Below are positions 12,401-16,278 of a stretch of 64,000 bases of DNA, in pieces. The stretch is taken from the NCBI GenBank assembly GCA_964572155.1, contig CAZNDZ010000001.1:648840-712839 (forward strand). The letters run 5' to 3'. Each line of letters begins with the position of its first letter. Within the stretch, counting starts at the first letter, position 1. This stretch comes from an uncultured Planctomycetales bacterium. GTDB taxonomy: Bacteria > Omnitrophota > Gorgyraeia > Zapsychrales > Fredricksoniimonadaceae. Made by a program: the position numbers and the translations under genes. The notes beneath the pieces are model-generated. The model was given only the letters and a program-made list of their open reading frames with translations, had not been told where the DNA came from and searched no databases.

Positions 12401-15400
12401 ATGTGATTGGTAATCTAACATCGACGACAGATCCTAGCAATCGTACAACGTCTATTATGTATGATACAACATATAAAACGTTCCCCGTGCAAACAACCAA
12501 TGCCTTGAGCCAAACGGTTAAGACCTATTATTATGGGATTAATGCGAGCGAATTAGCGACGGATCCTAAGTACAACGCGCAAATGTATGGTCCATTTGGC
12601 GCGGTCATGGCGGTGGTTGATGCCAATGGTCAAAAGATGTTTAAGCACTATGATTCGTTGGGCCGTTTGCTTAAAACCATATCGCCGCTGGATACATTCG
12701 ATCTGCCAACATCAGAAACGATTTATACGTACGGGACAAATTTTTTAAAAGTTATTAGTAAGTCGCGTGTCAATGCAGGTGCGGCGACCACCATCGATAG
12801 CTCAACGTTTGTTGATGGCCTAGGCCGAGTGATTCAGAGTAAAGGAACAACCGCGACAGCTGGACAGTATGTTGTTGGTGAGCAAAAGACCTATAATTCA
12901 AGAGGTTTGGTCTTATCGGTTTTTCCTTCAAGATTTACAAGCAATGATTTAAATACCATGGACCCTACACCTGCGGATACTAATCCAAAGGTGACAAATT
13001 TTTATGATGCCTTAGGCCGTCAAATCAAAGCCTTAAATAGCGACGGAACATATTCTAATGTTGAATATGATGGTTTAAAGACCACAAGCTATGATCCTAA
13101 CGGTCATAAGAATGTCAGTTACAGTGATTCTTTTGGACGCATGATCACACGCGAGGAATATTTTGGTGCGGATGGCCGTGATGCCAAAAATCCTGCAAGT
13201 GCGTACACATTATACGCGACCACGCGTTATCAATACGATGCTTTAGGTAATTTAACCAAGGTCACGGATGCTAAAGGTAATATTACGACGATCAGTTATG
13301 ATGCCTTAGGTCGTAAGACCAGCATGAATGATCCTGACATGCACGGTTGGGTTTATGCATACGATTCCAATGGTAATTTGTTAAGTCAGAAAGATGCGTT
13401 AAACAAACAGCTTAAATTTAATTATGATGCGCTCAATCGATTAAAGTCAAAGACGGTAACTTTGTCTATGGTGTCAGGTGGAGTGACAACGATCTATGAT
13501 TCACTATTGGCAAGTTATACATATGAGAACGTGTCTGTGGCAAACACCACGGGACGTCTATCTAAAGTAGCGTACAGCTCTGAGAACGCTACCTTTAACT
13601 ACGACACCTTAGGTCGTGAAACATCGTCGACAAAGAACATTGCGGGTGTTAACTACACCGTCAGCCGTCAATATGACGATTTAAACCGATTAACCAAATT
13701 AATCTATCCCGATGCGGCTAATGTCGGCTATGTCTATAACACTGCAGGCCAAGCTGTGGGCGTTAATATCTTAAATGTCGACGGCAGCATTAATAAGACC
13801 ATTGTCAGCAATGTCATCTACAACGCGCAAGGCCAAATGACCAGCGTCGTCTTTGGCAATGGGGTCACAACACAATACACCTATGATCCTGTTAATTTTA
13901 GATTAACACGCGTCTTAACCCAAAATGCAGCCGCTGTTAAACATCAAGATTTAAATTATACCTATGACAGCGTCGGTAATATCATCACCATCACGGATGC
14001 TGTTAATACGGGCACGCAAAGTTTTACCTATGATGCCTTAAACCGAATGTTGACATCAACCGGTGCAAGCTATGGCACAAAGACCTATGCCTATGACCAA
14101 ATCGGCAACATCACCCAGAAAGACGGCTTAACCTATACCTATGGCACCTATGGCGCCGGCCCTCATGCTGTTGGGTCGACGAGTGATGGGTATATTTATC
14201 GTTACAATGCTAACGGCAACATGATAAGCAAACAAACCCCAACGGGTGGATTGTATTCTTATGTTTATAATTATGAAAACAGATTAACGAGCATAGGTTT
14301 TGCACCCGTCGGCAAAGTCGCCAAGACCATTGCCGCATACTATTACGATGGCGACGGCGGTAGAACACGAAAGATTGTCTATCGCTATAGCGACACATCC
14401 TATAACAACGCTGAAACCTACGGCATCCTAGTCACACAACTAGGCGCCCCAACCTTTGGCGTCGGCGTCACCCAGACAAGCACAAGCACCATCTATGTAG
14501 GCAACCTTTATGAAATTGAAGGTGCTAGAAGAACCAATAACATTTATCTGGGGAGCACAAGGGTTGCTGCTGTTACAGGTACTGAGGTTGATTTCTATCA
14601 CAACGATCACTTAGGCTCAACGAATGTCATCACCGACGCCACAGGCCAAGCCCGATCGTTAACCGAATACGAACCCTTCGGCAAAATTAGCCGCTTCGAA
14701 AAATACGGCACCAAGATCAACAACACCTGGGCATTCTTTAACAGCAAACTCTTTGATGAAGAGAGCGGGTTGTACTATTATGGGGCTAGGTATTATGATC
14801 CCAAATTGGGACGGTTTATTACGCCGGATACGATTGTTCAAGCGCCAAGCAATCCTCAGACGCTGAACAGATACACGTATTGTAATAATAATCCGGTGAA
14901 TCTGATTGATCCGACGGGGCATAAGTGGAAGTGGGGGAATTTCTTTAAAGCGGTTGGTATTGCTATTGCTGGTGCAATATTAACTGTCGTAAGCGCAGGA
15001 ACACTAGCTCCAGTTGTTGGAGCATATTGGGCAGGAGTTGTGACGGGTGCAGTAGCAGGTGCGACGATAGGAGGAACCGTCGCAGCCGCTACGGGAGGGA
15101 ACATAGGGCAGGGGCTGCTGACAGGTGCGATAAGCGGAGCTGTGTTCGGTGGAATTGGAAGTCTTCATTTATCTGGGTTAACACAAACTCTTGCACATAC
15201 AGCAGGTGGTGCAGTTTCAGGCGTAATTAACGGCGCTGTGACAGGTGGAAATATTGGAACGAACGCATTGATTGGTGGAATAAGTGCGGGAACATCACAG
15301 TGGGCTTCAAGTAATATTCAAATTTTCAAACTTTCTGGAAATTATTTTAAAGATGTTATAACACAAGCGTCATTAGGAGGGATTGTTGGTGGTGGGATCT

Positions 15401-15864: not shown

Positions 15865-16278
15865 ATGTCAAATAGTTCTATTGAATTACATGATTCGGAC
15901 ATAGAAGAAATCAAAGTTAATAAGGATGAAATAAGGGTAATTTTTGGTTTGGTTATTCTACATGTTTCTGATGGAAGGCCAGGAATAGATGCTGGAGATG
16001 TTTATGTACAGAAAGCAGAGCTATTATTTGAAGGAGACTGTGACCTTAGGGGAAATATAAACGAATATCCGGTATTAATTTCTGATGGAACGTTGCAAAT
16101 TAATGAATTGATTTTAGAGAATGAAATACCAGTGCCATTAAATAGAAGTGGAAAGGTAAGACTTGCTATTTCTCCACGTGATATTGGAGATGAAATAACA
16201 ATTACTAGTGATAGAGTCTTGCTGACTTTATTAGACAAACCAAAATATCTTGAGGCTTTTCCGGGAAGATTAAAATAA
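15865..16278 (+). CDS. candidate cognate immunity protein (acidic, 137 aa, no signal peptide)
   Basis: Starts 30 nt after the Rhs stop on the same strand, the usual position of rhsI immunity genes; no known family recognised. Confidence 0.35.
   Translation: MSNSSIELHDSDIEEIKVNKDEIRVIFGLVILHVSDGRPGIDAGDVYVQKAELLFEGDCDLRGNINEYPVLISDGTLQINELILENEIPVPLNRSGKVRLAISPRDIGDEITITSDRVLLTLLDKPKYLEAFPGRLK

Follow-up and report, generated by a model that had tools for sequence, protein, structure and literature searches.

A reused glycine-rich module and a compact candidate toxin/immunity pair at the C-terminal end of a TcB-TcC-like RHS protein from an Omnitrophota genome

RHS polymorphic toxins with an adjoining immunity gene are a well-known kind of system, and several described toxins bear on how their C-terminal ends may be organized. 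In CdiA-CT regions, an exchangeable cytoplasm-entry domain is followed by a polymorphic nuclease; the entry domains are soluble and use inner-membrane protein receptors, and the immunity protein recognises only the nuclease. Tse5-CT, from an Rhs protein of Pseudomonas aeruginosa, is a glycine-zipper region that is itself the toxin. TcB-TcC cocoons hold a cargo of about 30 kDa, and we know of no solved RHS or Tc cocoon in which the region after the DPxGH motif is not cleaved and enclosed. The zipper region is also the toxin in EsxX-CT (PMC12744356), in the ionophores of contact-dependent inhibition (CDI; PMC11630599) and in CdzC/D (PMC5380434), where immunity usually includes membrane proteins. 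Tde1, an effector of the Agrobacterium type VI secretion system (T6SS), carries a glycine zipper N-terminal to its DNase that is required for membrane permeabilisation and prey entry; this zipper is only tens of residues long and binds an adaptor as well, and the Tde1 immunity protein targets the enzymatic domain (PMC10240207). Here we analyse an RHS gene and the small gene that follows it in a 64,000-nucleotide (nt) stretch of DNA, the window, from an uncultured Planctomycetales bacterium placed by GTDB in the Omnitrophota (GCA_964572155.1, contig CAZNDZ010000001.1, positions 648,840 to 712,839).

The part of the RHS protein that lies after the motif DPTGH, which we call the tip, spans 303 amino acids (aa; 14923-15831 of the window), one fewer than a first-pass annotation had counted. 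That annotation read the glycine-zipper segments of the tip as suggesting a membrane-inserting or pore-forming module and the downstream 137-aa open reading frame (ORF) as the candidate immunity gene. A candidate new toxin/immunity pair does emerge from our analysis, with the difference that the toxin would be the ~65-aa tail rather than the zipper region. We favour, with a probability of about 60%, a two-part cargo in which a reused module precedes a toxin tail of ~65 aa that is neutralised by the 137-aa protein (Table 1). The boundaries of these domains, their modularity, the co-occurrence of tail and immunity gene, and their absence from curated libraries are direct observations. What is new is the family of the module, that of the ~65-aa candidate toxin and that of the candidate immunity protein.

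The carrier is a Sec-signal, TcB-TcC-fusion-like cocoon protein. As called by NCBI it is 2134 aa long and starts at Met13. A Ser/Thr-rich linker comes after its signal-peptide-like N-terminus, and Pfam recognises PF03534, PF13517/PF01839, PF12256 and PF05593 (the last at E=1.5e-42); TcB-type SpvB, propeller and TcdB_midN parts are thus fused with a TcC-type RHS shell, as expected of a Tc toxin. The marks of an RHS/YD polymorphic toxin are present as well, namely RHS/YD repeats, a core (Rhs_assc_core, TIGR03696, aa 1759-1843, E=1.1e-23) ending in an intact autoproteolysis motif of the DPxGH type, a variable C-terminal domain with an adjoining cognate immunity gene, and orphan cassettes in which part of the core is retained. 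Zhang et al. (2012) assigned the combination of signal peptide, SpvB and propeller to a trafficking class, the 'TcdB/TcaC export pathway' (PMC3482391).

An initial word-indexed search returned only 12 relatives of the tip, and in these a glycine-rich region was common to proteins with differing C-terminal ends: the tails were unrelated (P0003), Ntox37-like below threshold (P0004), of the DPBB_1 lytic-transglycosylase type (P0010) or of another type (P0005-P0007). A profile of this region (A2, 190 positions), searched against 1.84 billion cluster representatives, gave 904 matches at E<=1e-3, 341 at E<=1e-10 and 91 at E<=1e-30, with the best E values down to 1e-58. The match was always near the C-terminus of the protein, and the RHS core-end pattern D[PF]xG stood just ahead of it in 96 of the 98 matches with enough upstream sequence. 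All four full-length carriers scanned combine SpvB, TcdB_midN and RHS domains, three of them with FG-GAP in addition, and the N-termini of full-length carriers resemble signal peptides. The closest relatives, at 62% identity, are in Ca. Omnitrophota; among GTDB representative genomes the module also occurs in Planctomycetales, Desulfobacterales, Syntrophaceae/Syntrophobacter and Nitrospira. Ten positions are invariant or nearly so across phyla (G64, G68, A69, G72, F75, G96, G100, G112, G118 and G123).

What follows the module is far more variable. The tails behind it have a median length of 117 aa (range ~80-150 aa), and 146 of them fell into 102 BLAST clusters; total tip length is narrowly distributed around a median of 289 aa (interquartile range 278-301). 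Pfam recognises ~10% of the tails, leaving ~90% without a match, and those recognised are of toxin type: Tox-REase-7, Ntox44, Tlde1_dom, YkuD, DPBB_1, phospholipase A2 and Peptidase_C92. By these sequence comparisons, the module appears to be a large, predicted helical, Gly/Ala-rich family that is lacking from Pfam and NCBIfam and recurs ahead of small C-terminal domains of many unrelated kinds. So far it is confined to RHS proteins of the SpvB type, where it serves as a shared adaptor for numerous tails. The family is new, and full-text literature searches found no published description of it. Two further observations concern its range. One module-linked tail (alignment A4) matches eukaryotic serum amyloid A (PF00277, E=2.8e-32), an unexpected RHS cargo. 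The main RHS protein of a related Omnitrophota metagenome-assembled genome (L001, 162-6515) has a different tip, in which a short single-hairpin zipper (about aa 1899-1947, positions 31-79 of the module's hidden Markov model, E=3.5e-7) is followed by a soluble domain of ~190 aa; because of this single-hairpin version, the module seems to exist in shorter forms.

Within the tip studied here, the glycine-zipper-rich composition reported in the first pass holds, and extends over about 230 aa. Residues 1-232 consist of 20.7% G, 14.7% A, 9.5% V, 9.1% I, 8.2% T and 7.8% S, and just 12 of them carry a charge. They contain 17 GxxxG motifs, compared with 9.6 +/- 2.5 in shuffled sequences (fraction reaching the observed count, 0.0045), and 33 [GAS]xxx[GAS]xxx[GAS] motifs, compared with 17.5 +/- 4.0 (fraction 0.0005). 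The last ~70 residues are polar, with abundant Pro, Gly, Asp and His, and the charged His/Asp tail GMPGWRGKDHVHVDGGKDHLPPDTPYPD stands at the tip end. AlphaFold2, run on a 38-sequence alignment, modelled tip residues 35-190 at a predicted local distance difference test (pLDDT) score of 80-90, as six helices of 20-23 residues. The linker was modelled as a long, poorly defined helix, and residues 203-237 fell below a pLDDT of 50; a hydrophobic helix also lies ahead of the tail in P0163 and P0164, two relatives of the tail described below. The first helix of the tip is strongly hydrophobic (Kyte-Doolittle index about 2.0 over 19 residues). Compared with known folds, the module model scored 9.5 against Ndc1, 7.9 against mitochondrial carriers, 7.6 against CLC, 7.2 and 6.9 against Tim22, 6.8 against OEP16, about 6 against complex-I B14.7, and 5.7 and 5.4 against the pore domains of colicins B and A. 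These scores are modest and may come from generic helical packing, yet they agree with the composition.

As the first-pass annotation had supposed, the tip falls outside catalogued toxin families, with no match in Pfam, NCBIfam, PADLOC or PDB sequences. Residues 1-226 matched no Pfam family at E<=10, including Gly-zipper_YMGG/Omp/OmpA and the pre-toxin domain PT-TG, and only one relative (P0008) gave a weak match to Gly-zipper_YMGG (E 0.0037, below the cut-off). Matches of the tip, and of the module, tail and immunity profiles, to PDB sequences were spurious (carbonic anhydrase, designed 'Cake' propellers and flagellin). No second copy of module, tail or immunity gene was found within the window.

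The tail itself has a recognisable signature. In the family alignment (A7, n=6), F, E, W, R and D are invariant, followed by G..G..G-K-D-H-V-H, G, H-L and T-P; two further tails (L029 and L030) have Asn in place of Lys and keep D-H-V-H. These invariant residues are candidate catalytic or metal-binding residues, and the tail is a candidate new small, beta-rich toxin domain with the signature E-x-W-R-x-D ... D-H-V-H ... H. A second subfamily (P0164 and P0165, 56-63% identical) was found outside RHS genes: P0164 (in the locus L011/L012, 8001-8780) is a stand-alone 126-aa protein made of one N-terminal transmembrane (TM)-like anchor and the tail, and P0165 (in the locus L031, 296-956) is an orphan fragment that sits beside a PT-HINT fragment in an array of polymorphic toxins. 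The first pass had seen in the tail a faint resemblance to a His-Me finger. D-H-V-H and a later His are indeed conserved in every tail-family sequence examined; the tail gave no match to HNH, AHH, WHH, GHH or similar Pfam families, and its low-confidence model (pLDDT about 55) is a beta-hairpin formed by TERWRFD and GKDHVHV, without the helix that a His-Me finger requires after the hairpin. Membership in Ntox37 (PF15535) was rejected, as the window tail gave no match even at E<=10 and its hhalign comparison with the P0004 tail was not significant.

The downstream gene is tied to this tail. Its ORF begins 30 nt past the RHS stop codon, behind the ribosome-binding-like stretch AAAGAGAG, and the coordinates, acidic character and lack of a recognisable family given for it in the first pass were all borne out, with a net charge of -10 and no match in Pfam, NCBIfam, PADLOC or PDB sequences; the protein has no hydrophobic segment. 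A promoter and terminator scan around the tail/immunity pair gave nothing above shuffled expectation. Seven homologues of the protein were found, at 60-100% identity, which speaks against a chance reading frame. The junction with the upstream gene was open to inspection in five relatives, and each time that gene closes with the same tail, as expected of the proposed immunity gene. In the Omnitrophota genome represented by L001/L015, the tip is 75% identical overall and 94% identical over its last 113 aa, and the immunity protein shares 73% identity; this tip belongs to an orphan cassette that keeps the RHS-core remnant NNPTSRVDFDGH. L029 and L030 have the same tail and then a homologue of the 137-aa protein at 81% identity, and the L007 contig opens at the tail end KKHLPPNTPYPD* and continues with a homologue. 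On a JGI contig, the homologue P0018 is preceded by P0163, a 101-aa protein that lacks the module and consists of a hydrophobic helix and the tail. Even where the module is missing, then, the 137-aa gene pairs with the tail, which argues against the zipper region as the toxin of the pair. By gene order and conservation, the 137-aa protein is a candidate cognate immunity protein of the ~65-aa tail, and its soluble, acidic nature and lack of TM segments are easier to reconcile with a soluble toxin than with a pore former.

Other tails behave differently downstream. After P0164 and P0165 alike comes a member of another conserved family, of 131/137 aa (33% mutual identity, E=2e-20), and no kinship between this family of L011/L031 and the 137-aa family was detected by BLASTP or hhalign. 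The genes after other module tails encode six polytopic TM proteins, three proteins of signal-peptide or lipoprotein type and four soluble ones; for two of the last (L017 and L019), the gene starts ~100-450 nt past the toxin gene. These downstream proteins are mutually unrelated except for those of L009 and L020 (62% identity), which follow the same tail type. Module-specific immunity through related TM-type downstream proteins was considered and rejected, as no homology was found among them. Because the downstream genes change with the tail while the module stays constant, no immunity family is bound to the module, and this is the main argument against the module as the toxic moiety: it precedes about 100 unrelated tails without a conserved immunity partner.

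Table 1. Coordinates of the RHS gene, its parts and neighbouring features in the window
Feature	Position	Strand	Remarks
RHS carrier gene, 2146 aa	9394-15834	+	SpvB / FG-GAP / TcdB_midN / RHS domains
Predicted signal peptide MMKYIVLALFVLTSFSAQA	9430-9486	+	read by eye
DPTGH, RHS core-end autoproteolysis motif	14908-14922	+	aa 1839-1843; end of Rhs_assc_core
Conserved Gly/Ala-rich pre-toxin module	14923-15492	+	tip aa 1-190
Confidently modelled module core	15025-15492	+	tip aa 35-190; six helices of ~20-23 residues (AlphaFold2)
Hydrophobic linker, one long helix	15493-15627	+	tip aa 191-235; shared only by closest relatives P0001-P0004 and P0020
C-terminal tail, ~64 aa, candidate polymorphic toxin domain	15640-15831	+	new family
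137-aa acidic, soluble, predicted all-beta protein, cognate immunity candidate	15865-16278	+	new family
Lower-GC island	15800-23400		GC about 0.30-0.39 vs 0.42-0.48 in flanks; begins at immunity gene
Lipoprotein-like 163-aa ORF	16484-16975		in island
320-aa ORF with signal-peptide-like N-terminus	17058-18020		in island
IS200-type Y1 transposase genes	18605-19192, 19849-20550		in island
Trypsin-like peptidase	20935-22089		in island
Fic-domain protein	22194-23162		in island
GspD secretin	23772-25472		type II secretion-like cluster
GspE ATPase	25482-27167		type II secretion-like cluster
PilM/PilN-like gene	30758-32122		type II secretion-like cluster

The following model is inferential as regards insertion of the module into a membrane, the compartment in which the tail would act, and what the tail does chemically. 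The RHS protein would be exported by Sec, perhaps aided by the type II secretion genes 8 kb downstream, and the tip would be cut at DPTGH and enclosed in the RHS shell. Once out of the cocoon, the glycine-zipper helices of the module would insert into the target-cell membrane and carry or anchor the small domain, so that the module would stand in for the separate TcA injector of classical Tc toxins. No TcA-like injector subunit (~2500 aa) was found within the window, where no other ORF exceeds 1021 aa and the ORFs of 862 aa and 1021 aa have no Pfam match; a built-in delivery device would thus fill an obvious gap. The tail would be active in the cytoplasm, where it may be a metal-dependent enzyme, for instance a nuclease, and the 137-aa protein would neutralise it by direct binding. 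Cytoplasmic action would fit because the immunity protein is soluble and lacks a signal. Extended to the whole family, the proposal is that TcA-less, Sec-exported RHS toxins of Omnitrophota, Desulfobacterota, Planctomycetota and Nitrospirota might carry a built-in ~190-aa, six-helix, Tim17/22-reminiscent translocator that inserts itself and delivers any one of more than 100 small toxin domains; we put this forward only tentatively and would not bet on it.

Several points weigh against the two-part cargo as we have described it. The activity of the tail is a guess, the tail being modelled at low confidence, and its family is small, with eight distinct sequences including that of the window. The module also precedes periplasm-acting domains (Tlde1, DPBB and YkuD), so translocation across the inner membrane cannot be its sole role. 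The strongly hydrophobic first helix should be a stop-transfer signal in Sec export, which leaves the entry of the tip into the cocoon unexplained. Lastly, soluble immunity proteins can neutralise glycine-zipper toxins, as in EsxX-ExiAB (PMC12744356), and soluble immunity by itself therefore does not exclude a membrane toxin.

The EsxX precedent is compatible with a reading close to that of the first pass: the zipper region of ~200-230 aa would itself form pores or depolarise membranes, as Tse5-CT, EsxX and the CDI ionophores do, with the 137-aa protein neutralising that region and the tail as an appendage. If so, the zipper region would be expected to co-vary with the downstream genes, which it does not: hundreds of clusters share the module with different tails and downstream genes and no common immunity family, whereas the 137-aa family accompanies the tail also in the module-less fragment. 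Given also that the tails include bona fide enzymatic toxins, and that the module profile lacks a sequence match to any PDB chain, we consider a toxic zipper very unlikely here. A passive role for the module, as a low-complexity, unfolded spacer that fills the cocoon by padding small toxins to the cargo size required there, or as a plug or gate with no part to play at the target membrane, would account for the tightly constrained tip length, which is near the TcB-TcC cargo size, for the small size of the tails, and for the fact that the module accompanies periplasmic and cytoplasmic toxin types alike. A spacer needs no near-invariant glycine positions across phyla, however, and the module is modelled as regular helices of TM length at high pLDDT; mere packing or release is thus an unlikely function.

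The remaining alternative places the module in the membrane of the producer cell. There, a Sec stop-transfer event would tether the RHS body to the inner membrane as a C-terminal anchor and leave the tail in the cytoplasm, held in check by the 137-aa protein. The N-terminal signal peptide together with the hydrophobic first tip helix, the cytosolic immunity protein, and the TM-like anchor ahead of the tail in the stand-alone homologue P0164 would all suit such an arrangement. Against it, solved RHS and Tc cocoons cleave and enclose the region past DPxGH, a motif that is intact here, and both orphan cassettes and polymorphic tails paired with cognate immunity genes are typical of toxins that are delivered. 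We regard an anchor in the producer as highly improbable, and the two-part cargo, with a reused module and a toxin tail, remains the explanation that we prefer.

The immunity gene also marks the start of a lower-GC island (Table 1). The 163-aa and 320-aa ORFs directly after it have no family match, and might serve as orphan immunity genes against tails that act in the periplasm; the 163-aa protein shows a very faint similarity (E=0.35) to the lipoprotein encoded after P0005. Cassettes of tip and immunity gene are repeatedly flanked by Y1 transposase genes of the IS200/RAYT type, as seen in the window, in L001 (12369-13671), in L019 (2866-4036) and on the P0018 contig, and related transposase genes (up to 71% identity, L001 versus L019) adjoin cassettes in other organisms. 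Two tyrosine recombinases on unrelated contigs (L001, 8327-9712, and L009, 5804-7531) are 55% identical over 453 aa, and each lies ~290-470 nt upstream of an orphan cassette of module and tail whose start falls inside an RHS-core remnant. L001 further has a 91-nt direct repeat (77% identity), one copy at the core end of the main rhs gene (5531-5621) and the other at the orphan cassette (9853-9943). Recombinase and repeat together may represent a dedicated tip-swapping system.

Two other neighbours deserve mention. The type II secretion-like cluster (23772-32652) lies ~8 kb downstream of the RHS gene, past the low-GC island, and could be the exporter of the folded RHS cocoon. Upstream of the RHS gene (6178-7413) is an unusual fusion of a ParA/MinD-type ATPase (AAA_31) with a C-terminal glycogen-binding CBM48/AMPK1_CBM domain.

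Without a TcA injector or a T6SS spike, cargo must still get out of the RHS cocoon and past the envelope of the target, and the module is a concrete candidate for that step. Its profile is a search handle for hundreds of RHS tips from poorly studied phyla, whose tails are mostly unknown small toxins with adjoining immunity genes; among these phyla are the Omnitrophota, which one preprint implicates as predatory or host-dependent (bioRxiv 10.1101/2023.11.21.568195). Together, the DHVH tail of ~65 aa and its beta-rich 137-aa neighbour would form a new and very compact toxin/immunity pair. Were the built-in translocator to prove true, it would amount to a new, self-contained principle of protein delivery, and the mini-toxins behind it would be a large and unknown store, with no Pfam match for about 90% of them.

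Among described systems, the glycine-zipper membrane toxins share with this tip a Gly-zipper-rich, hydrophobic region at the C-terminus of a polymorphic toxin. Here, in contrast, the zipper stays constant while the type of immunity differs, and the tail is the part that the soluble immunity protein accompanies. For the tail and its partner, the closest known systems include the DNase toxin-immunity pair PT7/PIM7 of Bacillus cereus (PDB 8owu) and Ntox37, a small all-beta domain: the P0004 tail matches PF15535 below threshold (E 0.0018; 19.2 bits versus a cut-off of 27.8), and the listed Ntox37 signature, 'E, [KR], Hx[DH]' (PMC3482391), resembles the E...K-D-H-V-H of the window tail. For the module, Tde1 offers a likeness of architecture, in that repeated GxxxG motifs lie N-terminal to a toxin domain; our module, with its excess of GxxxG and its constant position before the tails, differs in being a ~190-aa, six-helix unit inside an RHS cocoon that is combined with more than 100 tails. 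CdiA-CT similarly places a conserved entry or delivery domain ahead of a polymorphic toxin domain to which immunity is tied, whereas the module is hydrophobic, glycine-rich and joined to RHS instead of CdiA. The protein as a whole is most like the TcB-TcC cocoon of Photorhabdus and Yersinia Tc toxins, with its SpvB, FG-GAP propeller, TcdB_midN and RHS shell, self-cleavage at DPxGH, and variable cargo of ~290-300 aa. Unlike these toxins, B and C are fused in a single protein with a Sec signal, no TcA-like gene lies within the 64 kb, and the cargo is in two parts, a conserved zipper module and a small, variable tail whose immunity gene is of bacterial type.

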